A stretch of DNA of 62,918 nt, filler included, from Reclinomonas americana ATCC 50394 (taxonomy: Eukaryota): the NCBI GenBank assembly GCA_048213135.1. It is 7 parts of 3 records of this genome, joined end to end, with 100 filler letters (N's around TTAATTAATTAA, not from the genome) between each part and the next. Parts side by side here need not be neighbours in the genome. Positions count along the whole stretch, not along the records: positions 1 to 15,931 come from PS015346.1; 6 more parts are not named here. The stretch is one strand, 5' to 3'. Positions 1 to 60,110 of the stretch are shown one piece after another. The position numbers were made by a program, and so were the translations under genes. How positions within the stretch are numbered: position 1 is the first letter of the stretch; each line of letters opens with the position of its first letter. Under the pieces are notes generated by a model. It had not been told where the DNA came from. It saw only the letters and a program-made list of their open reading frames with translations, and made no database searches.

Positions 1-5
1 CCGTC

Positions 6-60
<55 letters not shown>

Positions 61-215
61 CCTCTCTCTCGCTCTCGCTCTCTCTTTGTCCCTCTCTCTC
101 TCCCTTCCCCTCGCTCTCCCTCGCTTCCTCTTGCTCTCTCTCTTTCTCACTCTCCCTCTCCCTCTCCCTCTCCCTCTCCCTCTCTCTCTGTCTCTATCTC
201 ACACACGCGACACAG

Positions 216-3756
<3,541 letters not shown>

Positions 3757-3966
3757 AAAACTCAAGAATATAGTCGACCCAATAGTTGTTTTGCACGCAC
3801 AAACCGCACATCTAACATCGCTTCACTCCACTCCACTCCATAACACGCACAAAAAATAATACTACATCGCACAAAACAATTCACAAAAATGCACACAAAA
3901 ATTGAACACTAAAAATCGCAAAAAAATATGACACTACCACCACACGCCGCCGCCGGTGAGACTCTC

Positions 3967-5560
3967 TCACGGAGTCGGTGGTAGGTCGAGTTCCCCAGTG
4001 GGGCACTTGCTTTCGACAATGGCTGCGCCAAAGTCCTGTGGCACGAACGCGATGAGAAGGCATGTGGTGTGGTGGAATGAAACCTAGGACACCTCCGCAA
4101 CTTCGTATTCCTCTCGCAGAATCCACACGTTTTCATACGTGGACAGCGAGGAGACAGTGGCCGCACCGCGCCACACATTATACAGGCGATCGGGAGTCGC
4201 CACCACATTTGGCTTTGCGCCCTCGCTGCGTCGGCGCTGGTACACCTCTCGCTGCAGGCGCTGACGGAAGCCCTCCATCATGGTGGATCCGCCGGAGACG
4301 ACAATGTTTTGCAAGAGCGTGGCTTGCGCATCCGGATCGCACAGCGACAACACACGACACACTGCAGCGAGAAAGAAGAGAGGAGATTCAGCACCAGCAC
4401 AACCCAATAATTTAGTCCTCCCTTCCCCACCCTGTCCCTCTCCCTCTCCCTTTCTACTCACCATGGTTGGCGATACCGGGCATACCCACGCGGTGCGTGA
4501 CAAGCTCGGGTCGGAACAGCGGCTCGGCACACTCGCGCCGCTCCGAGCTCACCACAATGGCGCGACCGTCGGGCAGCTGATACGTGGTCTCCCAGTCTGC
4601 ACTGACAACTGCGGCGGCGTTGACAGCGACGGACGATGCGTCGGACTCAGGGTCCAACTGCACATGTGCCAATGCCTCCTTCACCATGCGCGCATGCTCG
4701 GCCGTCACCGTCTGACCATGATCGCGCAACAACAGATCTTGCAAGTACGCCGTCACATCCTGTCCGGCCACAGGCAGTACATGCACAGCCTGCACACAGA
4801 ACGATGTGAGAAAAACGGCACGAAAAAGTCTGGCGATAGAAACGCAACGTGAGCCATCAGCTGTCCTTGCACAAACGGCACCACAGAGGAGATGCCATGA
4901 CCGCTTTCCACAACCAGGCCAGTGAGACCGACACCAGCGGCATACAATGCCATCTTTGGCGCGTACTCCAGGGACACGGCGGGCGCGTGGAACACGTTGA
5001 AGATCATGTCGACAACTGCGAGAGAGAGAGAGAAAGAGAGTGTCAGAAAGTCTGTTACGTTGACAATTGGTCGACCGCCAGCCGCAACTCTTGGCTCGTG
5101 CCGCCTGATTGGTGCCCGGGGCCACCGTGACCACGACTGGATGATTGGCCACCGGCACTCCGAGCTCGTGCTCAAACACGTGCTCCCACAGTGCTTGCAC
5201 GTCGTCCCAGTTTACCGCTTGAGCGCGCTCAAACGGACTCAGGCACTCATAGATGCCGCGGTGATTGACGGGCTCGTTGCCACACACAGTCGGCGCACCG
5301 CTTCCCTCCGGGGCCCGCCACACTGAACTCCGCACCACACAATGCGGCTGCCGCTCACCAGAAAAGCCGGCTTTGGTATACCCTACACACGAATCATTGC
5401 ATGGTGAGGAGACGAACGAATGGATGACACAGGCGATGAATAGAAAACAAGCACACCAGATCCAGAATCCACTGCACATGTAAAGCATCGCAATGAGCAT
5501 GCGGTCAAACAGCAGCGCAGAGCACGCAGGGAGGAGAGACGCAACAGACAAGGGCGCGTT
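3967..5560 (-). CDS. Divergent actin-related (Arp-like) domain, the C-terminal part of the gene above
   Basis: Spliced motifs ALVLDSGSGYTKAGFSGE, VNWDDVQALWEHVF, TGLVVESGHGISSVVPF, YQLPDGRAI, ECAEPLFRP, NIVVSGGSTMMEGF, VWRGAA and WILREEY...GAAIVESKC are collinear with actin. Confidence 0.93.
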
Positions 5561-8500
5561 CATGCAGGGCCGCCGAAAACGTGGCGCCAACCGAGGAACG
5601 TGCCGCCATAGCTGTGGATCCGTGGTATTCCGCTCCACCGTCGCCAGACTGGACTGTCGACTCGGCCGCTGTCCCACTTGCACTCGAATCTGAAGCGAAG
5701 CGCACCGACTTGCGACGTTTCTCCAACTTGGGCGACAAGCGGCCGGACACTGACGGTTTCCGCGCCTGCTCAGCTCCGATTGGGGCCAGCATCAGGGACG
5801 CCACCGCAATCGACGGACCGGCCGGATTGAGAGGCGACAGACGACCTCCAGCCACAGATCCGCCCAGGTTGCTTGATGCCACAGCCGACGAAGCGACCAT
5901 CATCACTGGCGTCGACGGCAGTGCCGAAGGCGGGGCCGCAATGATTTCCATGGACGACGAGGACCCGAATAGCGACATGCTGCGACGACGGCGTGCCGCT
6001 GCGCGCATGTCGGCTGCAGAAGTCGCATTCCCGTCGCCAGGAGCCAGCGCAGACTGCGTCGTTGCACTCGAAGGCTGTCGCCAGCAACACGACAGAAAAG
6101 TCAGCGAAATAACCGTGAGGCGACACCAACGTGAACTGTGCGGACGCAACGGCAGCACTGGCGACTCCGGTGGCACCGGTGCCCTCGCTTGTCACCTGCG
6201 CAGGCAGGTACTTGTGCCAGGTGCGAGCCTCGGCACGCAAGTCGCCGGCCAGTGCCTCGCCGAGAGCCACCAGTCGGCCAATGCGCTCCTGTTGAAGCTG
6301 CGTCGGATCAGACGCTGTGTGGGGGGCGAGGGAGAGTGAAGCGGTGAGCGATGCAAATTGTTGAAGCACGGGTGCACACAGACGAACTGACCTCGTGTCT
6401 TGAACGAGCCGAGCACCTGCTGATGCAACAGATTGTTCCTGTACAGCTCACTCGCGTCTTCCATCGGGAGGACACACACATGCGCCGCCTCCTCGTTGAT
6501 TTCCGTGAGGAGCTGGTGGATGGTGGACGGCTTTGTACCAGCACCACCACCAGCACCACCGCCATTCTGTGTGAATACACAGAGCGCGTCAGCAACGCGT
6601 AGCGTGGTGACAATGGAGGATTGACAATGCACCTCGTAGTCATCGGTTGGACGGCCCATCAGTTTCATACACGACACGTGCAACTGCTTCAACGCCTGCA
6701 CGCGAGAGTTGTCGAGTCAGCGCACGCGCACACACTCACATGCAAACGACATTATGAAGATCACCTCATCAGATCCGAGTACATCAGCCTGCGCTCGTCG
6801 CAGCTCGTCACGCTCCTGAGTGAGAAGCATGATTTCTTCGTCCAGGTTGTCCGCCTCGGCCAGACTCAGTCGCACACTCTTCCAGGCCTCGATGCGCTGC
6901 AGGGCCACACGCGGCAGTCAGAGGATGCAGTGGCGCAGACAATGGCTGCCATGGTGACTACACGCATACACACCTCTTCCACCATCAGCAGTGCTTCGCG
7001 CAGATCGTTGATGCGATCACGGACGGCGTTAGTGCGCAGCTGCAGCGGACTGTGGATGTCACGACGGCCGGCTCCAGAGGCCTGACAAGAGACATGAATT
7101 AGCACACGCACTGTCGCAATTGTGCAACCAATCAATCTACTTCGGTTCTGCCGCACCTTCAAAATACGCAGAATCTCCTCCTCCAGCACAATGGCCTCCT
7201 GCAACTCTTGCTGCTCCTGCTTGAGGTCATCGAGCGTGATGCGAATCGGCTCAAACTCCTCTGCCAGTGAGCGCAAATGCGCCAGCTCCTTTTCGGCCTC
7301 CGAGTGACGCAAGGTGCACAAAGCAAGCTCTTGCGAGACGCGCTCCAGGTCGGACGACAGCTGCAAGTTGCTCTCCTGCAGCGACTTACGATCTCGCTTC
7401 ACCGAGCGCAATGTCGACTCGGCACTCTCCAGCGAGGCTTGCAGGCGGTCGCGCTCAGCTTCAGCCTTGGACGAGGCATCCATCTGATACAACACCAGCA
7501 TGCAGTGAGAAGGATGTGAGGATCATCAAAATGAAAAGGGCGACAAACCTGTGCCTCCAGTGAGCTGCTGAGATTGGTTCGATCGATGGTGAGCGTGCGC
7601 ACTTGCTGCGTCAGTGCCTCCAACTGTATCTGCGAGATTTGCAGACGATGCAGCTGCTCGTCGGTCACCGACGCGCCAGTGTGCCCGGTGGAGCGGTGTG
7701 AACTGTTGAGTTCGGCCAGCAAGCGGTCGCGCTCCTGCAGCAGCGAACCCATTTCCTCCATGTGGGTCTCCAGCGAGGTTTGCAATCGCACGTTCTCCGT
7801 CTCCACCGTGCGCGCCTCCTTTGAGCGTGTTTGCAGCTCACGTCCCTGCAGCTCGCAAAGGCTCTTCACGTTGGCCAACTCGACCGTCAACTCCTCCACC
7901 GTGCGGTTCAACTCGTCGAACTCTGACACCAAGAACTCGTGAGCAGTCTTGTCGCTCTCCGAATCCTCCACGCGCTGGCGCAGAGCGGCCAGTTCAACGT
8001 CCTTGCTCTCGACGTCACGGGAGCGTTGGGCCAACACACTCATGGCCTGCCACAAACACGCATGAGCATTTCGAGGAAGTGATAGATAGAGAGAAGAGAC
8101 ACAATCGATGCAGACGTCACCTCAGCAAGCTGTGCGGTCAGCGCGTCCTTCTGCATGCGAGCATCGGCAGCATCGCGTTCCGCTTGAGTCACCGCGGCGA
8201 CAGAGGCCACCGACGAGGCAGCATTCGATTTCAAATGTTCGTTCTCCTCGCGCATCTCGGCCAGCTCCGACTCCATCGCGTGCGCCTCATCGAGCAACTC
8301 AGAAGTCGACAGCAGCTGCCGCTTCGTGTCCTCGAGTTCCGCCAGCACGTCATCAAGCTCGCTGCGAGGCACTCGTCCCGCCTCCAGCTCCTCAATCGTG
8401 AGTCGCAGAGCAGCGTTACTGCGCTGCTCTTCCTGTTAATGCGCAGAAACAGACGAGTGAGGTGACGGGATACAAAAATAACAAGGATCAGCAAGCGAGT

Positions 8501-11500
8501 CGCACCTCGAGCGCCGTGTTCGTCTCCAACAGGATTTGATAGTACTCGTCACGCTCCGCGTTTGCCGCTTGCAGTTGCTCCTCAAGACTGGATTGTGAGC
8601 CTTGTGTCGTCTCCGCGAATCGTGCACTCTCAACTCGGAGCTGACTAATTTGCTCCTTCAGAGCCGCCTCCGTCGCCACAGCTTGTTGCACCTGCTCCTC
8701 CAGCGCAGCTACTCGCACACTTGCGGCGTCAGCCTGAGAATGCAGTTGCTCCTTCAGAGCCGACTCCGTCGCCGCGGCTTGCTGCACCTGCTCCTCCAGC
8801 GCAGCTACTCGCACACTTGCGGCGTCAGCCTGAGAATGCAGTTGCTCCTTCAGAGCCGACTCCGTCGCCGCAGCTTGCTGCACCTGCTCCTCCAGTGCAG
8901 CCACTCGCGCACTCGAATCACCAGCCTGAGACTGCATTTGCTCCTTCAGAGCTGACTCAATCGCCACAGCTTGTTGCACTTGCTCCTCCAGAGCAGCTAC
9001 TCGAGCACTCGCGGCGTCAGCCTGTGCCTGCAGTTGCTCCTTCAGAGCTGTCTCCGTCGCCACAGCTTGTTGCACTTGCTCCTCCAGAGCAGCTACTCGA
9101 GCACTCGCGGCGTCAGCCTGTGCCTGCAGTTGCTCCTTCAGAGCTGTCTCCGTCGCCACAGCTTGTTGCACCTGCTCCTCCAGCGCAGCTACTCGCACAC
9201 TTGCGGCGTCAGCCTGAGACTGCAGTTGCTCCTTCAGAGCTGACTCCGTCGCCACAGCTTGTTGCACTTGCTCCTCCAGTGCAGCCACTCGAGCACTCGC
9301 GGCATCAGTCTGAGACTGCAGTTGCTCCTTCAGAGCCGTCTCCGTCGCCACAGCTTGTTGCACTTGCTCCTCCAGTGCAGCCACTCGAGCACTCGCGGCA
9401 TCAGTCTGAGACTGCAGTTGCTCCTTCAGAGCCGTCTCCGTCGCCACAGCTTGTTGCACCTGCTCCTCCAGCGCCGCCACCCGTGCACTCGCGGCATCAG
9501 CCAGAGACTGCAGTTGCTCCTTCAGAGCTGACTCCGTCGCCACAGCTTGTTGCACCTGCTCCTCCAGCGCAGCTACTTGCACACTTGCGGCGTCAGCCTG
9601 AGAATGCAGTTGCTCCTTCAGAGCCGACTCCGTCGCCGCTGCCTGCTGCACCTGCTCCTCCAGAGCCGCCACTCGAGCACTCGAATCACCAGCCTGAGAC
9701 TGCAGTTGCTCCTTCAGAGCTGACTCCGTCGCCACAGCTTGTTGCACTTGCTCCTCCAGTGCGGCCACTCGCGCACTCGCAGAATCAGTCTGAGACTGCA
9801 GTTGCTCCTTCAGAGCCGCCTCCGTCGCCACAGCTTGTTGCACTTGCTCCTCCAGAGCCGCCACTCGAGCACTCGCAGCATCAGCTTGAGACTGAAGTTG
9901 CAACAGCTGCTCCTTCAGAGCTGCCTCCGTCGCCACAGCTTGCAGCAACTGCTCCTCCAGTGCGGCCACTCGCGCACTCGCAGAATCAGCCTGTGCCTGC
10001 AGTTGCTCCTTCAGAGCCGTCTCCGTCGCCACAGCTTGTTGCACTTGCTCCTCCAGAGCCGCCACTCGTGCACTCGCAGATTCAGCCTGTGACAGCAGTT
10101 GCTCCTTCAGAGCCGTCTCTGTCGCCACAGCTTGTTGCACCTGCTCCTCCAGCGCAGCCACCCGTGCACTCGCACCGTCAGTCTGAGACTGCAGTTGCTC
10201 CTTCAGAGCCGTCTCCGTCGCCGCAGCTTGTTGCACCTGCTCTTCCAGTGCAGCCACTCGCACACTCGCAGAAGCAGCCTGAGATTGCAGTTGCTTCTTC
10301 AGAGCCGACTCCGTTGCCGCTGCCTGCTGCACTTGCTCCTCCAGAGCAGCTACTCGAGCACTCGCAGCATCAGCCTGAGACTGCAGTTGCTCCTTCAGTG
10401 CCGTCTCCGTCGCCACAGCTTGTTGCACTTGCTCCTCCAGAGCAGCTACTCGAGCACTCGCAGCATCAGCCTGAGACTGCAGTTGCTCCTTCAGAGCTGA
10501 CTCCATCGCCGCAGCTTGTTGCAGCTGCTCCTCCAGAGCCGCCACTCGTGCACTCGCAGAATCAGCCTGAGACTGCAGTTGCTCCTTCAGAGCCGACTCC
10601 GTCGCCACAGCGTGTTGCACTTGCTCCTCCAGTGCGGCCACTCGCGCACTCGCGGCATCAGCCTGAGACTGCAGCTGCTCCTTCAGAGCCGTCTCCGTCG
10701 CCACTGCCTGCTGCACCTGCTCCTCCAGCGCAGCCACTCGCACACTCGCGGTCTCAGCCTGAGACTGCAGTTGCTCCTTCAGAGCCGACTCCGTCGCCAC
10801 AGCTTGTTGCACCTGCTCCTCCAGCGCAGCCACTCGCACACGCGCGGTCTCAGCCTGAGACTGCAGTTGCTCCTTCAGAGCCGACTCCGTCGCCACAGCT
10901 TGTTGCACTCGCTCCTCCAGTGCGGCCACTTGTGCACTTGCAGCATCAGTCTGAGACTGCATGTGGATTTGAATCTCAGCCAGCTGGAATTCCAAACTCG
11001 ACGCTCGCTGCTGCGCGACCTCCGACTCCTCAGTCAGCGCGGCGACACGCGATTGCAGCAGAGATGTCTCTGCACGTGCCGCCTCCAGTGATGCTGAGCA
11101 ATCTTGCAGTTGAGACTCGACGGTCGCTGCCTCGGTGGTGGCACGAACCAGCTGCTCTTGCAGAGTTGAATTCTCGTCCACTGACTCGTCGAGGTGCTCT
11201 TGCATCTCGGTGATGCGCCGCCGTTCCTGCTGAAGCTGTTGAATCGTTGTCGTCAGCTGCTGCTGGCCGTCCGACTGCTGCTGCTGCATCAGCTGCTGAA
11301 TGGCCTGCAGCTTTTCCTCCGATGCCTCCACTGCAGCCTGCAAACGGATACGCTCATCCTCCAACGTAGCTGCCTCCATCATCGCAGAAACAAGCTGTTC
11401 ATGCAATGTCGCGGCCTCCTCACGTGCCTCCTCCAGCGAATCGGCGAGACTCTGCCGCTGTTCCTGAGCGTCGCGAGCCAAAGTTGCTTCCCTCTTCTTC

Positions 11501-14500
11501 GACTCGGCAAGTCGCGCCTCTACGTCTGCCAACTTGGCCTGCTCAGTCGACAACGCAAGTGCACCGGAGACGCGCTGTTGCTGCTCCGCCGCCAACGCGA
11601 TCTCAATCGACGCAATGTGATCTCGTGCAACATCAAGCTCACGCCCTCGAAGAGCCAGCTGCTCCGCTGTAACCGTGGTCACCGCCGCTTGCGTGACTCG
11701 AGTGACCAACACTTCTGCGGTAGCACATTGACGCTCGTCGGCAAGCGCACCAGCAAGCTCTCGAACGCGATCTTCCGCACGGTGCAAACTGTCTGCCGTG
11801 CGAGCCAGCTGCGCACAATGCTGGTCAACGGTTCTTGAGACGCCTGCGACTTCGTCCAGTAGCGCAGCCTCGATTCCCAGGGTGACGGCTCTACCAGCCA
11901 TGGTTGAAACCACCAGCGCAGACCGCAGCTCGGCAATCTCTTCGGCCGAACGAGCAGCGTCACGGAGCGTATCGTGCACAGTGGAGCTCAACACTGTGAG
12001 ATCGCACTCAGCCTGGTGCAGCTGCAGGCGCAGTCCATCAAGTCGCTGGGTGGCAGCCGCTAGAGCATCCCGTGACAACTCATCGTCAACTTGCAGTTGA
12101 TCACAGCGGGCCGATTCATCGGCCAGCGACTGCTGCAGAAGCGAGCACTCAAGCGTTGATGCTGTGTTTGCACAAGTCAGCGTTATTGTGACTATGAAAA
12201 AAAGAGAAGAAATTATACACACCACGAAGCGCAGATTGTGTGTCCACGAGGACAGCATCGACATGGTTGAAGATATTCTCGTTCACGATGCGTGCAACCA
12301 GAGCGCGACCGGTATCCAACGCGAAATCGTCGGCACGCTGGCGTTCAGTAGCCTGGCACTGCCGTTCAGCAGCCTCCAGTTGCGCCTTCAGCGTCATCAT
12401 TTGCTCTGAGTGAGCCTGCTCAGTCGATAGCCTGTCATGCTCAGCAGCCTCGAGTTGCACTTTCAGTGCCGTCACTTGATCCGAGTGAGCCTGCTCAGTC
12501 GATAACCTGTCATGCTCAGCAGCCTCGAGTTGTGCCTTCAGCGCTGTCACTTGCTCCGAGTGAGCCTGCTCAGCCGATAATCTGTCATGCTCAGCAGCCT
12601 CAAGTTGCGCCTTCAGCGCCGTCACTTGCTCCGAGTGAGCCTGCTCAGCCGATAATCTGTCATGCTCAGCAGCCTCAAGTTGCGCCTTCAGCGCCGTCAC
12701 TTGCTCCGAGTGAGCCTGCTCAGTTGACAGCCTGTCATGCTCAGCAGTCTCGAGTTGTGCCTTCAGTGCCGTCACTTGCTCCGAGTGAGCCTGCTCAGTT
12801 GACAGCCTGTCATGCTCAGCAGTCTCGAGTTGCGCCTTCAGCGCCGTCACTTGCTCTGAGTGTGCTTGCTCAGCCGATAACCTGTCATGCTCAGCAGCCT
12901 CAAGTTGCGCCTTCAGCGCCGTCACTTGCCCCAAGTGCGCCTGCTCAGTTGACAACCTGTCATGCTCAGCAGTCTCGAGTTGCGCCTTCAGTGCCGTCAC
13001 TTGCTCCGAGTGTGCTTGCTCAGCCGATAATCTGTCGTGCTCAGCAGTCTCGAGNNNNNNNNNNNNNNNNNNNNNNNNNNNNNNNNNNNNNNNNNNNNNN
13101 NNNNNNNNNNNNNNNNNNNNNNNNNNNNNNNNNNNNNNNNNNNNNNNNNNNNNNNNNNNNNNNNNNNNNNNNNNNNNNNNNNNNNNNNNNNNNNNNNNNN
13201 NNNNNNNNNNNNNNNNNNNNNNNNNNNNNNNNNNNNNNNNNNNNNNNNNNNNNNNNNNNNNNNNNNNNNNNNNNNNNNNNNNNNNNNNNNNNNNNNNNNN
13301 NNNNNNNNNNNNNNNNNNNNNNNNNNNNNNNNNNNNNNNNNNNNNNNNNNNNNNNNNNNNNNNNNNNNNNNNNNNNNNNNNNNNNNNNNNNNNNNNNNNN
13401 NNNNNNNNNNNNNNNNNNNNNNNNNNNNNNNNNNNNNNNNNNNNNNNNNNNNNNNNNNNNNNNNNNNNNNNNNNNNNNNNNNNNNNNNNNNNNNNNNNNN
13501 NNNNNNNNNNNNNNNNNNNNNNNNNNNNNNNNNNNNNNNNNNNNNNNNNNNNNNNNNNNNNNNNNNNNNNNNNNNNNNNNNNNNNNNNNNNNNNNNNNNN
13601 NNNNNNNNNNNNNNNNNNNNNNNNNNNNNNNNNNNNNNNNNNNNNNNNNNNNNNNNNNNNNNNNNNNNNNNNNNNNNNNNNNNNNNNNNNNNNNNNNNNN
13701 NNNNNNNNNNNNNNNNNNNNNNNNNNNNNNNNNNNNNNNNNNNNNNNNNNNNNNNNNNNNNNNNNNNNNNNNNNNNNNNNNNNNNNNNNNNNNNNNNNNN
13801 NNNNNNNNNNNNNNCTCGAGTTGCGCCTTCAGTGCTGTCACTTGCTCCGAGTGAGCCTGCTCAGTTGACAGCCTGTCATGCTCAGCAGTCTCGAGTTCCG
13901 CCTTCAGCGCCGTCACTTGCTCTGAGTGCGCCTGCTCAGTCGATAATCTGTCATGCTCAGCAGTCTCGAGTTGCGCCTTTAGTGCCGTCACTTGCTCCAA
14001 GTGCGCCTGCTCAGCCGACAATCTGTCACGCTCAGCAGTCTCGAGTTCCGCCTTCAGCGCCGTCACTTGCTCTGAGTGTGCTTGCTCAGCAGTCTCGAGT
14101 TGCGCCTTCAGCGCCGCCACTTGCTCCGAGTGAGCCTGCTCAGTTGACAACCTGTCACGCTCAGCAGTCTCGAGTTGCGCCTTCAGCGCCGTCACCTGCT
14201 CCGAGTGAGCCTGCTCAGTCGATAACCTGTCATGCTCAGCAGCCTCAAGTTGCGCCTTCAGCGCCGTCACTTGCTCTGAGTGTGCTTGCTCAGCAGTCTC
14301 GAGTTGCGCCTTCAGTGCCGTCACTTGCTCCAAGTGCGCCTGCTCAGTTGACAATCTGTCATGCTCAGCAGCCTCGAGTTGCGCCTTCAGCGCCGTCACT
14401 TGCTCTGAGTGTGCTTGCTCAGCAGTCTCGAGTTGCGCCTTCAGCGCCGTCACTTGCTCTGAGTGTGCTTGCTCAGCAGTCTCGAGTTGCGCCTTCAGTG

Positions 14501-15931
14501 CCGTCACCTGCTCCGAGTGAGCCTGCTCAGTTGACAATCTGTCACGCTCAGCAGTCTCGAGCCGCCCCTGCATCGTTGCCAGTTCTTCGCGAGCAACAGC
14601 CAGCTCATCTCGTGTTGACTTTCGCCGCCGCTCTGAACTGGTAAGCTTACCAATTGAGACGAGATTAAGCAGCCAGGCGTGTTGACGCTCGCCATCAGCA
14701 GCCTCCAGTTGCGTGCGCAATACCTCCCTCTGCTCGGTGGCCGCGCGCAGCTGATCCGCCGTCTCACGTCGCAATCGGGCGCATTCCTGTTGCACCTGAT
14801 CACGGCTGCTCGTCACAGCGGCAAGTTCAGCACGCGTGTTCTGCAGTGTGCGCTCCGCACTCTCCTGCATGGCCGCCGCCTCCTGCGCAGCACGCTGGCA
14901 GGCATCGTGCTGTTGGTCTCACTTGTTAGTTACCAGATAGCATCAGAGACACGGCGAATGGGGGAGCAGAATTCACCTTCCACTGCAGCTGCTCGACGCG
15001 CGACTCGAGTTGTACGCGTTCTGCCGTGCTTCGCTCCAGCTGCTCCTCGAGGCGGCGCACATTTGCACCGTGGTCACGCTCCACCACGTGTGCCTCCTCA
15101 AGCAGTCGCTCCATGTCATCCGTCTGCTGCTGACACCGGTCACGAAGGGTGGCGATTAGGGCCGACAGCTGCTCGTTTTCCAGCTTGTTCACCGCCAGTT
15201 CAGATCGAGCAGACTCGAGCGAGCGTTCTAATCTGACACGCTCCAGCGCCGCCTGCTGCACAACCACATTGCAGTGCTGTTCAACAGCTGCCGCGCCTTC
15301 CCGCACTCGCTCCAATTCGCTGGTCTTGGCCCGCACAGCGGCTCTGAGTTGCTCAACTTCAGCATCCAGCTCGCCGATGCGAACGTCACGCTGCGTTGGC
15401 ACAGTGTCAGCGACAGTCAACAAAGCCAACACCCGCAGAGAGCATAGCACACAAACCGGATCAGGAGGCACTTCCTCTGGAACCACGTCGCCAACAATGA
15501 GCTCCTCCGCCTCGCCACTGGCACTGACCGGTGCCCGAGGAGCGACGGCGGACAAAGCATCCGCAAAGCTCGGCGGCTCCGACAGCTGCGCCTGGTGTCT
15601 CTCGGGCACCACGACAGCCGCGTGCTCTCGGCCAGACTGATAGCTGCGTCTGGTGCGCGCGGCCTGTCGGAGCTCGCTGCACGTCGCCTCGGCGGCGGCC
15701 AGCTGCTCCTGCAACTCGGCCACTGTCGCGGCGTGCCTGCGATCAGATGCGGCCTGCAACCTCAACGCATCGTCCAACATGCGGCCTTGTGACTCGACCA
15801 CCACGTCGCACACTGCTGACGCCGCGGCAGCTTGCACCGTATGTTGAGCAAGCGTGATGGCATTGTCTTCGGCCTGCTGATTTTCAGTCTGCATGACTTG
15901 CTCCTCGAGACGCAAGACCTCATCCACCAGA
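3967..15931 (-). CDS. Giant (~3,500 aa, 5'-incomplete) tandem-repeat coiled-coil protein with a C-terminal actin-fold domain
   Basis: About 20 GT-AG introns of consistent phase join the E/Q/A/L-rich ORFs (14926-15927, 13041-14870, 12149-13000, 8488-12264, 8040-8372, 7399-8055, 6866-7501 and others) through a Ser/Ala linker (5546-6074) to the actin domain. The first stop in the spliced frame is at 3967-3969. A gap at 13055-13814 lies inside the repeat array. Confidence 0.8.
8655..10960 (-). repeat. Coding tandem repeat, 96-bp / 32-aa unit (SALKEQLQSQADAASARVAALEEQVQQAVATE), about 24 copies
   Basis: Visible in both DNA and translation; one copy near 9900 carries a 3-aa insertion. Confidence 0.97.
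12370..14560 (-). repeat. Coding tandem repeat, 75-bp / 25-aa unit (TALKAQLETAEHDRLSTEQAHSEQV) with 54-bp / 18-aa variants
   Basis: Directly visible on both sides of the 13055-13814 gap. Confidence 0.97.
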
Positions 15932-15975
15932 NNNNNNNNNNNNNNNNNNNNNNNNNNNNNNNNNNNNNNNNNNNN

Positions 15976-15987
15976 TTAATTAATTAA
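15976..15987. other. Artificial scaffold linker TTAATTAATTAA; also at 21926, 28149, 48098, 52791 and 59961
   Basis: Identical palindromic all-frame-stop 12-mer embedded in N-runs six times. Confidence 0.97.
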
Positions 15988-16729
15988 NNNNNNNNNNNNN
16001 NNNNNNNNNNNNNNNNNNNNNNNNNNNNNNNTTGCTCGCACTGACGCACTCCTCCTCACTGCTTGTCACGCACTCACTCACGCACGCACGCACGCACACA
16101 CGCACACACTCGCTCACTCGCTCGCCTGCTGCGGAAGATCTGCTTGTGAGGCGTGATTCGTGATCAGAGGGTGAGAGGCGCGCGCGAGCAACGTCCCGCC
16201 TTTTTCCGAAACCGGACCGATATTATTTCCTGTATTTATTTTGGTAATAGTGACTGAGATTGCACGTGGAAGAACGGAATGCATCGATGTGCGATAACGA
16301 GGTGCTTTGAAGTGAAGGAGCGAAAGGCGAGGAGAGGCAGGAAATTCGTCGAATTCCGGTCGAATTATTGGAATTGTGGATTTCCACGACGCCGACAGCA
16401 GTGCAACAACAACGACAGCAACTTTGCAAATTCCAAGAGCTTCACAGGTGCAGAAACTCAGATGTCACGGAAAAAACGAGGAAAAGTCGAGATGACTAAT
16501 GCTGGCGTTTCTGCAAGAGAAACCACGGCTCACGACAAGCATGGATTCGACGCCGAATTCCAAACAGGAATGCAGAAAGATAGCAACAGGTGCTGGTGTC
16601 AGAACACATAGGAAAAACCAACAAAGCCATGCAACGTGCAAGAAAGTCCGGGAAGGCGCTGAGGTGCAGTCGAGTGGTTGTCGCTGATGATGGTGATGCT
16701 CACGGGAGTTGTCACTGCCGTCTGTTGAT

Positions 16730-17246: not shown

Positions 17247-27539
<10,293 letters not shown>

Positions 27540-28020: not shown

Positions 28021-28225
28021 ATGGCGTCGTGGTGTGTTGAGCTGGAGTGCCCTGCGCAGACGTATGCGTGGGGTCGTGTTGGTCTCACCAGCTCTGTTGC
28101 GCGANNNNNNNNNNNNNNNNNNNNNNNNNNNNNNNNNNNNNNNNNNNNTTAATTAATTAANNNNNNNNNNNNNNNNNNNNNNNNNNNNNNNNNNNNNNNN
28201 NNNNTCTCGTCGTCGTCTCTCTTCT

Positions 28226-31537: not shown

Positions 31538-34500
31538 TTATCTCCGCCCTCCGCTGCGCTTCATCGGCAAGTCGGGGAAGCGCAGTGGTGTCTTCAGGTA
31601 GACAATGGTGCGCGCCACAAAGTCGCCGGATGCCGGCGCAGCCGCAGATCGCGATCGCTTGCTGCTACCGGTGCTCTCTTCCGCCGCCGCCGCCTCATCC
31701 TCCTCCTCGGTGGCGCCTGGCATCGGTTCGTCGCCGTCGAGAATCACAATCTTGCCACTGCGTGACGCAAACACAAGAGTTAGCACACTGGACGACGACA
31801 ACACACAGCGGTGTGCCAGCAACGCAACGATGTCCGGCTCACACGAGCGGCTTCCTGCGCGCACCCGAGCTCGCGGAAATGCGTCAAGAGCTGCGCCCGA
31901 CCAATTCCCAAATCGTCAATCAGCGGCGTCGGGTCCAACCGGAAGTCGGGTGACGTGGAGAGCGCCAGCACCAGCGCGTAGTTGAGCATTTTCAGCTTTT
32001 TCGCCTCGCTCCACGAGTAGCTGGCCGGTGTCGGTCCCTCGGCCGGTCGCAGCTCCATGAAATCGGTCTTCAGGCGCTCGTACACCTCTGGCGGCGCAAA
32101 CAACATTTGCGACAATCTCTTGTGGTCCTCCTCGTTGCGCAGCACCTTGCGGTGCGCCTTGTACAGTTTCAGGAGCATGCGGCAGTAGACCAAGATCGAC
32201 AGCACGAATTCGACATTGTCGGGAGCGGCGACGAGAGAGTCGAGCACGCTGAGCACAAAGAACGACTCCTTCTTCTCCCGCCTCGCCTCAGCCAGCTGCT
32301 CTGGTTCGGACACCAGGCGGAAGAGGTGGCGTGTGTCGAGGGCGTTCCACTGTTCCGTGGTCAAAATGCTGCCGAGAGGGTAGACGTCGGCGGGGGTCTC
32401 CGCGTCCAGGTTGAAGGGGGGGAGGAGGGGGCGGTCTGTAAAGGGGAAGGGGGTGGGAAAGGGAAAGGGTGAGGGGGTAAAAAGGGAAAGGGTGAAGTGG
32501 GGGAAGGGAGATTGGGGAAAGGGGGAAGAGAGGAAGGGGGAAGGGGGAAGGGGAAGGGGAAGGGGAAAGGGTGAGATGGGGGAAGGGGATAGGGGTAGGG
32601 AAATAGGGGGCGGGGAGGCTTGAGGGCTGAGGGTTGAGGGTGGAGGATTGAGAGTTCAGTGTGCAGGGTGGAAGGATAAGGGAATGAAAAGAGGAGAGTA
32701 AAATGTGGAAGGTGGCGGGTGCAGGGCTGAAGATGGAAGCAGATGGGAATGGTGGAGTGAAGTGGGCAGAGTGGCGGTAAAGTGTGAGGGTAAAATGTGT
32801 AAGGTGATGCGTGGAGGATGGAAGAAGGATGGCGGTGAGAAGTGAAATTTAGTTGGCTCAGATCTGAGCGCGGAAAGTGGATGCTGTAGAATGGAGATCA
32901 AACAAATAGGGACAGCTGCAAGTGCAGAGTTGGGACTGAGGGCGAATATAGAGACAAGCGAGAGAGGGTGGGGGCTGAGGGTAGATTAGAATGGAGAGGC
33001 AGGATGTGAATTAAGCAGTCCGCACAGCAACACGATGTGATGAGAAAGTGAGCGCACGGCACTGTGCAAAGAGTACAGGATAAGCACAAGCAGCGACACT
33101 GCTTGCCAAATAAAGAGGGACTTCCCTGATGCGTCTGTCTGATGACGAAAAGGGAGGAGAAGAGATTGAGGACACAGACAGAGAGAAGAAAGAGATACGT
33201 CCTCTGTCAAAGGATTAAACAACCATCGAACTGTCTCATGCTCCTTTCCCAATCGGCCACTCACCCACTTCCACCGACACAGTGGCAGCGCGCGCCACCC
33301 TACCCAGCAACTCCGATCGCTGAGCCACCAGGCCCATCACATGACTCACGTCGCCCGTGCGCTCGTACGACACCTGATACTCGGCATTCGCTTTGATAGA
33401 GTTGCGCTTCTGTACGCTGCCAAACTCGCCATGTAGCCTCTCCATGTCCTGGTGGAATGCAGTCAGATTGCCTGTGTGCACTGGCAGATGGAGATGAGCA
33501 AATAAAACAACAGACCTTGTAGCGGCCCTCGGGGTTGTGCGAGTTGGCGGTGAGGAGGGTGTCACGACGCGCGCCTTCGCGGCGCACCGTTTGCATCATG
33601 CGCACGGGTTCGGGGACTTCGACGACGCGGACTTTGTTGGTTTCGGGGTCGTAGAGGCCGACGGCATACCTGCATATAGGGGAAGGGGGTGGTGAGGAAA
33701 GGGGTGGGGGAAGGGAGGGGAAGGGAAAGGGAGGGGGAAGGGAGGGGCAAAGAGGGGAGAGGGAGGGGTAAAGAGGGGAGAAGAGAAGGGGAAGGGAGGG
33801 GAAGGGAGGGGAAGGGAGGGGATGAGGTGATAAGAGGGGAAGGGAATGGAAGGAAAGGAAGAGAGGGAGGGAAGAGAGGGGAAGAGACTAGAGGTGATGA
33901 GAGGAGAGGAGACAGGAGAGAATGGAAGGCAAGAGAGAAAATGAGAAGGGAAGAGAAAAGAAGAGGAGTGAAATGAGAAAACGGAGAGACAGAGCAAGAG
34001 ATTGACAATGCATCACGACAACATCACAACTGGGCTAATACAACAAGTGGTGCAAGCGACGAGGAAGGAATACTCTCTCTCTCTCTCTCAAAGAGAAAGA
34101 AAGAGTCTCACTCTGAGAAAGAAAGGCTCTCTTAAAGAGAGACGTAGCCATACTCGAGGCGAATGGCGAAAAGCGAACTCATCGTCTTCATGACAGACGA
34201 GGCAACAGAAGAACTAGGAATGACCAGATATACATCGAGAACTGTGCCACCTCAGGCCTCCCTTCCACCCTCCCCCAGCCACTCACCGCACAGCACGTGA
34301 CGACGACCGCGCAGGGTTGGCTCGACCCTCGTACTGCAATCGCTCGGTCTCGGCCCGGTAGATGACGCGGTTCGGCAGCCGCTTGCCCTCCAGGCTCGCT
34401 GCGACAGAGGGCGACGAGGCCGCGACCACTGCCAGTGGTCGCTTTCGATCGAAGCGGGTGAAATGCAGCTCGGAGAGGTGCGAGGGGACGCAGCCGGGGA

Positions 34501-58440: not shown

Positions 58441-60110
58441 GAGGCGGTAAATGATTCGTGCGATGTTGCGCGGGTGGCGGTTTCTTGCACCACTCTAGTA
58501 GATATTCTGCACACATACATTCCAGATGTGAGGCAACAATGCAGGTGGTTTGCGAGGAGAAAACCATCGCACGTTATTTTCTCTCTTCGCCGTTTTTTTG
58601 AGTGTGTGATCGTGTCCCGCGAGATGAACTTCGGCAAAAAAGTCAAGCATGGCCGACTTTCGCTGGCGCCGACCACAATAAAATTGCCGACAAAAGTAAG
58701 AGGTTGTACTGCATAAAGCGGCGCGTGATAGCGCAATGATCGACGTCGGGACTCGAGGGAAGGGGAAGGGAGGGGAAGGGAGGGGGAGGAGGCGAAGGGA
58801 CAGGGAGGGGAAGGGAGGGGGAAGGGACAGGGAAGGGGAAGGGAAGGGAAGGGAAGGGAGGAGGGAGAGGGAAGAGGGAGAGGGAGGGGTAGGAGAGGGA
58901 AGGAGGAGGAGGAGGAGGAGGAGGAGGAGGAGGAGGAGGAGGAGAGGAGGAGGAGGAGGAGGAGGAGGAGGANNNNNNNNNNNNNNNNNNNNNNNNNNNN
59001 NNNNNNNNNNNNNNNNNNNNNNNNNNNNNNNNNNNNNNNNNNNNNNNNNNNNNNNNNNNNNNNNNNNNNNNNNNNNNNNNNNNNNNNNNNNNNNNNNNNN
59101 NNNNNNNNNNNNNNNNNNNNNNNNNNNNNNNNNNNNNNNNNNNNNNNNNNNNNNNNNNNNNNNNNNNNNNNNNNNNNNNNNNNNNNNNNNNNNNNNNNNN
59201 NNNNNNNNNNNNNNNNNNNNNNNNNNNNNNNNNNNNNNNNNNNNNNNNNNNNNNNNNNNNNNNNNNNNNNNNNNNNNNNNNNNNNNNNNNNNNNNNNNNN
59301 NNNNNNNNNNNNNNNNNNNNNNNNNNNNNNNNNNNNNNNNNNNNNNGGGAAACGAAGAGGGAAGGAGAAGGAAGACGAGAAGAGGTGAGCGGTGAGAGAG
59401 GAGAGGAACACAAGAGAAGAGAAGAGAGACGGAAAACAAGACAGAATGGATGAGAACAGCAGAGAAGAGAAGAGAAAGAATGTATGAGGAAGAAACGGGA
59501 GTCAGTCATTGTAAACAGGCAGCACCTTCCTTCTCGCCGGGATGTGATTCTCACAAGCATTCTGTGCAGGCCTGGTGCGAGACGTGCCGCACACTAGGGG
59601 ACGGTAACCTCTGGTGAGTCGAATTGCAAGAACTCGGCTCTCTATCTTTCTATTCCTCTGTTTGCATGTCCCCTCGTCTTCTTCCCTGCTCTCTCTCTCT
59701 CCATTATCTCCGGCTCTCACTTCGTCTCTCTCTATCCTTCCTCTCCATCTTTGCTCTCTTTCTCACACCCCCTCAACATTCACACACACTCTCTATATCT
59801 CAGTGTGCCAGTCTGTATGTTTCTGTTTATCTGCATGTCTGTCAATGTCTGTGCCTGTCTGTCTTCTTCTCTCTGCCAATCTTACCTATTCTCTCTCCGT
59901 CTCTCTCTCTCTCTCTNNNNNNNNNNNNNNNNNNNNNNNNNNNNNNNNNNNNNNNNNNNNTTAATTAATTAANNNNNNNNNNNNNNNNNNNNNNNNNNNN
60001 NNNNNNNNNNNNNNNNGTCTCTGTCGTCTCTCTACTCTCTCGTCTGTCTCTCTGTCTCTCTCTCTCTGTCTCTCTGTACTCTCTCGTCTGTCTGTCTGTC
60101 TGTCTGTCTC

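Follow-up and report, generated by a model that had tools for sequence, protein, structure and literature searches.

Filactin of Dictyostelium discoideum (PMC2441452) and the POTE-actin chimeras of primates (POTE ankyrin domain family members E, F, I and J) are the closest described proteins in which an actin fold forms the C-terminus of a much longer polypeptide. Here we describe a minus-strand locus of the eukaryote Reclinomonas americana ATCC 50394 (GenBank assembly GCA_048213135.1) in which a very long coiled-coil rod appears to be fused to a C-terminal actin-like module. The locus occupies positions 3967 to 15931 of the analysed stretch of 62,918 nucleotides, hereafter called the window. 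The actin domain of filactin has been called 'extremely homologous to conventional actin' (PMC2441452). The same source places the actin-domain motifs at residues 739-791, which makes filactin several-fold shorter than the protein considered here, and the word 'coiled' occurs 0 times in its text (PMC2441452). Whereas the filactin actin is near-conventional, the module described here reaches at most 39.1% identity to actins and has its catalytic Gln and His replaced. We considered a filactin-type fusion and rejected it: the extension is present, but the actin domain is not near-identical to conventional actin. The extension of filactin, which we take not to be a long coiled coil, also differs from that of the present protein, where a helical rod of at least 2,581 residues and a putative disordered leash precede the actin-like module.

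In the POTE-actin chimeras, the sequence that follows the ankyrin and helical repeats is a retrocopy of beta-actin, young and free of introns. These actin parts cluster with homologues of beta-actin (PMC7870945). A POTE-type recent retrocopy origin was also considered for the present module, and it is excluded by the six introns of this highly divergent sequence, which delimit among other pieces a microexon of 15 nucleotides (nt). Orphan actin-like proteins and divergent actin-related proteins (Arps), such as the apicomplexan actin-like proteins and the non-canonical Arps of Drosophila, likewise have a full-length fold at approximately 30-40% identity to actin, and they fit no canonical class. 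However, these proteins stand alone, while the present module is probably fused. A survey of the apicomplexan proteins (PMC1334187) contains 'coiled coil' 0 times and uses 'extension' only as an alignment parameter. Moreover, our literature searches on filactin, actin-like proteins and orphan Arps, which had supplements outside their scope, found no fusion of a coiled coil with an actin. As for the rod, the tail of myosin II and the golgins are parallel coiled coils of hundreds of nanometres with globular heads at one end. The present rod resembles them in its predicted parallel, in-register pairing with heads at one end, but the heads would be C-terminal actin folds and not the motor, GRIP or Rab-binding domains of myosin II and golgins.

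We identified three features that make a single gene the best reading of the locus: the top-scoring acceptor at position 6075, the coding frame of the linker that follows it, and the lack of a separate rod stop or an untranslated region (UTR)-like sequence between rod and actin-like module. We estimate the probability that a coiled-coil rod is fused to a C-terminal actin fold in one gene at about 0.7. The parts, their order and their coding and splice continuity were observed in the sequence (Table 1). From the N- to the C-terminus, they are the rod, a region of about 134 residues without a family, a linker of about 173 residues and an actin fold of 383 residues. After removal of the introns, the chain was stop-free over 661 codons 5′ of an assembly gap and over 2,596 to 2,619 codons across 13054-3967, depending on the donor at the junction. 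The sequenced product has a mass of 354 kDa and comprises 3,271 residues, a number that rises to about 3,524 when the gap is taken at face value.

The 5′ part of this minus-strand gene is absent, as the locus is truncated by a contig boundary at 15931. The piece that carries it extends over positions 1-15931 and contains internal N gaps at 500-1408 and 13055-13814. Six identical N44-TTAATTAATTAA-N44 blocks, which represent an all-frame stop linker, were found in the window (15932-16031, 21882-21981, 28105-28204, 48054-48153, 52747-52846 and 59917-60016), indicating that the window strings together separate draft contigs and that neighbourhood across the blocks is meaningless. Since the first block begins at 15932, position 15931 is the end of a contig and not of the gene, and the N-terminus of the protein is missing. 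A blastn comparison detected no similar DNA on the remaining contigs, and the window therefore does not contain the missing N-terminus.

The actin-like module was detected by Pfam Actin (PF00022) in three open reading frame (ORF) pieces, with scores of 87.1, 31.0 and 78.0 bits over profile positions 14-114, 113-168 and 310-398 of 410. All three exceed the curated cut-off of 27 bits in this search, which an earlier sequence-only reading of this DNA had proposed as a check, and by that cut-off the module is a member of the Actin/Arp superfamily. The same reading had assembled the first motif as ALV-LDSGS-GYTKAGF, and the microexon at 5471-5457 supplies LDSGS exactly. The six introns of the module all run from GT to AG (57-100 nt), and the last small one (4092-4036) restores an actin-like C-terminus, which is followed by the TGA stop at 3969-3967. 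In the spliced product of 401 residues, residues 19-389 were colinear with residues 22-404 of a 410-residue actin-family protein (E 5e-54). Identity to actins ranged from 27.4 to 39.1% in 122 full-length alignments of at least 330 columns, obtained among 161 fetched proteins. A HMMER scan of 1.84 billion representative proteins gave 1,877 matches at E<=0.001, and neither a close relative of the module nor a copy of the protein itself was found among these representatives; the best matches were ordinary or mis-predicted tandem actins with 35-42% identity. When two of the actin exons were searched against the PDB, the best 60 matches shown for each were all conventional actins, with no Arps. The last actin exon had Arp2 as its best named matches (40% identity, E ~5e-4), and when it was compared with longer proteins, 5 of 369 candidates matched, the best of them with 41% identity.

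The first phosphate loop LDSGSGYTKAGF and the motif VSGGSTMMEGF align with the nucleotide-binding motifs of conventional actin. In the second phosphate loop, the module has ESGHGISS in place of the DSGDGVTH of the aligned actins (Asp to Glu and Asp to His), and alignment with actins showed that the conserved hydrolysis Gln is replaced by Ala and the His by Ser, residues which we take to be numbered Q137 and H161. Compared with the aligned actins, the module also lacks six residues in the D-loop region and has six additional ones in the plug region. By these alignments, the module is a full-length but divergent actin fold. Judged by its residues, its identity and its D-loop, it does not qualify as a catalytically competent, polymerising conventional actin.

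The rod has 2,581 sequenced residues plus those of the gap, which makes the earlier figure of about 3,000 residues of coiled coil a fair one. It is rich in Ala (19%), Glu (14%), Gln (12%) and Leu (12%), carries a net charge of -229 and contains 3 prolines in the 1,920 residues 3′ of the gap. Two tandem arrays were identified by Tandem Repeats Finder (TRF). The 96-bp array, already named in the sequence-only reading, was borne out at 8650-10961 with 24.0 copies, 88% matches and a score of 3248. The 75-bp array was detected on either side of the gap, at 12366-13054 (9.2 copies, 90% matches) and at 13815-14561. The hydrophobic residues recur with a period of 32/9 = 3.556 in the 32-residue array (power 69.5, with a shuffled 99th percentile of 8.8), of 25/7 = 3.571 in the 25-residue array (power 18.7) and of 3.54 in one non-repeat part of the rod (power 13.8), against a shuffled 99th percentile of 8.1-8.8 for these three segments. 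Neither 32 nor 25 is a multiple of 7, and the strongest harmonics, 32/9 and 25/7, are those expected for heptads combined with one hendecad; in our reading of the spacing, the units would fit three or two heptads, respectively, plus one hendecad.

AlphaFold2 folding of a 600-residue piece (10333-12132) placed 572 residues in helix, distributed over six helices of which the longest has 166 residues, with a mean predicted local distance difference test (pLDDT) score of 68.5. The coiled-coil prediction suggested as a check in the sequence-only reading is thus borne out, by 572 helical residues of 600 and by a period near 3.5 that was significant in three of five rod segments. When residues 160-420 of this piece were folded in two copies, the number to which the pairing fold was confined, the score was 0.32, compared with 0.00 for the best of 3 controls. 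In a microbial benchmark, 21 of 30 solved one-chain pairs attained the mark used here, as against 0 of 23 single chains. In a eukaryotic benchmark, the corresponding figures were 17 of 29 and 0 of 30, and only 1 of the 7 pairs without an older solved relative attained it. In the two-copy runs, contact agreement was at least 95% and partner pLDDT at least 83, and residue i contacted residue i with a spacing of 3-4 residues, as in a parallel, in-register arrangement. This model supports pairing of the rod segment as a parallel in-register dimer. The dimeric rod of the sequence-only reading therefore gains support from a fold that passed its controls, and it stands as a prediction. The rise of a helix is 0.1485 nm per residue, and with this value the rod would be about 383 nm long as sequenced and about 421 nm if the gap has its nominal size. 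A comparison of the rod with proteins of 2,117-5,000 residues yielded no relatives among the 3,133 candidates scored, and Pfam gave generic coiled-coil cross-matches only.

Between the rod and the linker, the region of about 134 residues had no Pfam match at E<=0.01, the only hit being a chance-level one to Tubulin (E 0.17). Its exon stretch 6312-6196 scored +23.6 bits by codon log-odds. The linker of about 173 residues is composed largely of Ser (20%), Ala (19%), Gly (9%) and Pro (7%). AlphaFold2 predicted it as mostly coil with a mean pLDDT of 49.4, a value from a single sequence that is only suggestive, and the linker is probably a disordered leash.

The joining of rod and actin-like module depends on the junction in front of the linker exon. 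The five introns named in the sequence-only reading (6973-6897, 6764-6696, 6632-6567, 6391-6315 and 6126-6075) start with GT, end with AG and keep the phase, and their chain is stop-free. However, the use of such phase-compatible GT-AG linkage as evidence did not stand, as the critical junction offers 222 in-phase pairs with a spacing of 30-450 nt (75 when limited to 45-170 nt), and an accidental link is easy to make. This abundance of pairs speaks for two genes, an explanation that we regard as unlikely. In that case, the coiled-coil gene would end near the junction and an actin-like gene would start at one of the in-frame ATGs at 6008-5609, encoding 401 to about 535 residues with or without an N-terminal stretch rich in Ser/Ala, or an extra internal promoter would make the short protein in addition to the fusion. 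That actin-family proteins stand alone as a rule also counts for two genes. In addition, the sequence-only reading was mistaken in its premise that no start codon immediately precedes the actin domain: the in-frame ATG at 5609-5607 lies 18 codons upstream of ALV, and six more (6008, 5978, 5951, 5903, 5900 and 5792) are present in the same exon, 6074-5546. The presence of these seven starts weighs on the side of two genes, as does the 401-residue product of ATG 5609, which matches actin-family proteins of 375-410 residues over its whole length.

Against two genes stands the strong 3′ splice site at 6075, whose in-phase donors lie within the rod coding sequence. To score it, a position weight matrix (PWM) was built from the 17 other acceptors of the locus, with 35 intron and 3 exon bases. 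Acceptor 6075 scored 11.1, the top value among 34 AG sites in 6278-5550 (runner-up 5.2), and it exceeded 287 of 287 exonic AGs (maximum 8.9) as well as all 17 known acceptors scored by leave-one-out (maximum 10.7). A branch-like motif, CTGAC, is located at -30 of this acceptor, and T accounts for 40% of the final 40 bases. The motif CT[GC]A[CT] was found 20-37 nt before the acceptor in 13 of the 15 introns first examined. A stricter signature, combining the branch motif with T-richness, occurred at 0 of 155 exonic YAG sites, and over 13054-3967 it marked only 6075 and seven of the known acceptors. We conclude that 6075 is a genuine intron end. Donors at 6126, 6150 and 6195, giving introns of 52, 76 and 121 nt, are all in phase. 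Codon scores dropped stepwise from 6196 to 6076 (+5.2, +2.4 and +0.4 bits), and this gradual drop mildly favours the 52-nt intron with donor 6126.

We found that the sequence behind this acceptor carries a coding signal. The linker stretch 6074-5610 was 3-periodic (chi-square p 1e-5), which was true neither of the downstream controls (p 0.105, p 0.14) nor of the pooled introns (p 0.37). In a 64-codon log-odds model trained on the other exons, the linker frame was the only one of the six frames with a positive score (+20.1 bits, the next best being -6.1). Over 6074-5774, where the rod frame is still open, the linker frame scored +12.4 bits versus -24.3 bits for the rod frame, and with position-specific base frequencies its margin over the rod frame was 29.1 bits, which was reached in 10 of 2,000 shuffles. 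The 64 nt from acceptor 6075 to the first in-frame ATG also preferred the linker frame. The coding signal thus begins at the acceptor, upstream of the first in-frame ATG, which is a further point against two genes. Among the statistics applied, bins of 30 nt were too coarse, and a sliding 150-nt position-specific score was too noisy.

The continuity of the region also speaks against two genes. No stop codon ends the rod ORF ahead of the junction; read straight through, its frame meets a first stop at 5772-5770, 236 nt into the region that begins at ATG 6008. An out-of-frame ATG at 6028 lies ahead of every in-frame ATG after the acceptor. Moreover, the parts are separated neither by an AT- or T-rich UTR-like stretch nor by a homopurine/homopyrimidine tract (at least 95% pure over at least 40 nt). 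The GC content was 0.63-0.65 over 5600-6399 versus 0.45 just past the true stop, and 1 of the 52 such tracts of the window falls inside 3967-15931, where it lies in an actin intron.

The periodicity of the linker could also come from a gene on the opposite strand, as a stop-free plus-strand ORF of 280 residues (5497-6339) spans the region and the plus-strand frames are merely 6-10 bits below the sense frame by position-specific base frequencies. We consider this highly improbable, the least likely of the alternatives. The full codon model gave -38.6, -6.1 and -10.8 for the plus-strand frames versus +20.1 for the sense frame, the ORF crosses both the well-scoring sense exon stretch 6312-6196 and two introns, and it had no Pfam match at E<=1. 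Long antisense ORFs are also common in this GC-rich window, with one of 854 residues opposite the 96-bp array as an example. The antisense frames at 8649-11213 (+, 854 residues) and 5497-6339 (+, 280 residues) look like shadow ORFs of GC-rich coding sequence.

An assembly artefact would imply that a draft contig misjoined a coiled-coil gene and an unrelated actin-like gene, or that indels faked the continuity. The window does consist of draft contigs with internal N gaps, one of them within the gene, and contig ends often lie in simple repeats. However, the junction 5546-6400 is free of both N and repeats, composition and splice signals are alike on the two sides, and a chimera would hardly place the top acceptor, in-phase donors and a coding-like linker precisely between the parts. 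We therefore judge an artefact to be very unlikely.

In addition to the start codons and the narrow margin over the antisense frames, several points weigh against the fusion in a single gene or against the picture of the protein drawn from it. The assembly is a draft with gaps, and neither the protein size nor the reading frame across the 760-N gap is fixed by the sequence. At the junction, the donor cannot be fixed, as the donor PWM is weak and the out-of-phase GT at 6130 scores equal to the in-phase 6126. The introns used to train the PWMs are themselves models, of which homology backs only the six of the actin module, and the signature of branch motif and T-richness was defined after the site had been seen, so that the acceptor PWM is the fairer test. 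The second half of the linker alone (5849-5610) gave a periodicity p of 0.10, and synonymous-codon bias was too weak to tell the frames apart. For the rod, two of the five segments, both non-repeat, were below the shuffled 99th percentile (8.0 versus 8.4 and 6.2 versus 9.2), and the pass in the two-copy fold may reflect the model's memory of general coiled coils. The fusion model is known from the DNA sequence of one draft contig, and no orthologue was found in protein and metagenome searches; the metagenome scans gave 485 pattern matches, none of them confirmed, and 0 exact 60-mer matches. Finally, the function as a tether with docking heads is reached by inference only. Taken together, the fusion put forward in the sequence-only reading is favoured by splice, coding and continuity evidence, while the falsity of its no-ATG premise leaves room for a separate protein of 401 residues or longer.

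If rod and actin-like module form one protein, we propose that two rods pair in parallel and in register to give a rod of about 380-420 nm, which would present two actin-like heads on flexible leashes at its C-terminal end. The heads would probably bind nucleotide, hydrolyse it poorly and not polymerise normally, since the nucleotide loops are kept, the hydrolysis residues are lost and the D-loop is short, so that binding with little turnover is expected. They might serve as docking modules for conventional actin, at the end or the side of a filament, or for each other, and the protein would tether actin to whatever its missing N-terminus binds. Attachment through the N-terminus would be a tolerated geometry for actin, given that filactin is built in this way and that C-terminal tags can perturb actin folding, according to one study (PMC7870945). 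We infer that a long tether or anchor is the most likely role, with a nucleator or a ruler as a bolder version. A more detailed form of this proposal is speculative and, in our view, doubtful: a 'tethered actin', in which a parallel dimeric rod of about 400 nm carries two hydrolysis-poor actin folds next to each other on flexible leashes. The two folds would mimic a short-pitch actin dimer and would seed, cap or anchor conventional actin filaments, keeping them at a set distance from whatever structure the missing N-terminus binds.

The coordinates of all parts are collected in Table 1. Several of the rod introns are models from frame logic and splice signals only, which affects the length by no more than tens of residues. 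The genes of this eukaryote have a GC content of about 57-60%, and the introns are short (52-166 nt) and of the GT-AG type. Four of the 17 locus introns, with minus-strand donors at 12298, 5545, 5088 and 4848, begin with GTTGCG or GTTGCA and are not GTRAGT-like, and 11 of the 17 begin with GTG.

Table 1. Coordinates of the coiled-coil and actin-like locus, listed from the contig end towards the stop codon (window positions)
Feature	Position	Strand	Details and basis
Rod, 5′-most sequenced part	13815..15931	-	Exons 15931-15457, 15390-14977 and 14909-13815; open frames and translation
Introns in the 5′-most rod part	15456-15391, 14976-14910	-	Frame logic and splice signals
Assembly gap of 760 N, inside the 75-bp array	13055..13814	.	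N count
75-bp (25-residue) tandem array with 18 or more units sequenced, split by the gap	12366..~14561	-	TRF, unit count
Rod exons 3′ of the gap	13054-12299, 12132-8506, 8432-8121, 8046-7549, 7483-7157, 7081-6974, 6896-6765	-	Open frames, splice signals
Rod introns 3′ of the gap	12298-12133, 8505-8433, 8120-8047, 7548-7484, 7156-7082, 6973-6897	-	
96-bp (32-residue) tandem array, 24 units	8650..10961	-	TRF
Intron between the rod and the region without a family	6764-6696	-	GT..AG, phase kept
Non-coiled region, about 134 residues	6127..6695	-	Exons 6695-6633, 6566-6392 and 6314-6127 (or to 6151 or 6196)
Introns in the non-coiled region	6632-6567, 6391-6315	-	
Junction intron, from rod frame to linker frame	6075..6126	-	Acceptor fixed at 6075; donor alternatives
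Linker exon of 176 codons, rich in Ser/Ala/Gly/Pro; its 3′ end encodes the first actin residues	5546..6074	-	7 in-frame ATGs
15-nt microexon, LDSGS of the first phosphate-binding loop	5457..5471	-	
Predicted actin-fold module, 401 residues from ATG 5609	3967..5609	-	Seven coding pieces, 5609-5546, 5471-5457, 5382-5089, 5015-4849, 4789-4462, 4361-4093 and 4035-3967; TGA 3969-3967

Elsewhere in the window, three further open frames were seen on the minus strand. A stop-free frame of 881 residues at 48098-50743, which runs into a contig linker, is rich in Gly (16%), Ser (13%) and Ala (11%); it had no Pfam match, and its many GGG-x-L and N-x-x repeats suggest a surface protein of the beta-helix type. 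The frame at 31780-32655 carries a domain like that of the RNA polymerase I subunit A49 (PF06870, E 1.4e-32). No scoring relatives of this ORF were found among 5,140 word-sharing candidates from a large protein collection, and their absence suggests a poorly sampled lineage. The ORF at 18301-19737 has part of an RNB exoribonuclease domain (PF00773, E 5.3e-11) and adjoins long AGGGAG-type purine tracts at 18740-19700. An Atlas search yielded RNB clusters of a generic kind only. The 52 homopurine/homopyrimidine tracts make up 4,292 of the 59,316 non-N bases of the window (7.2%), and several contig ends fall within (TC)n. No Rfam families and no tRNAs were found in the window.

Routine gene callers would split or truncate a gene of this kind, and no close relative of either half is present among 1.84 billion representative proteins. 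Actin folds are almost always free-standing, and filactin and POTE-actin present a near-conventional actin behind a modest extension. If the single-gene reading is true, a protein of at least 350 kDa with a paired coiled coil of about 400 nm, a disordered leash and a divergent, probably hydrolysis-poor actin fold would be a different design, in which an actin fold is usable as the terminal docking head of a fibrous protein. If the 'tethered actin' proposal were also true, the protein would be a built-in nucleator, anchor and ruler without a counterpart in model organisms. The fusion, if real, would moreover be a natural test case for the way in which an actin-like domain tethered at its N-terminus encounters filaments.

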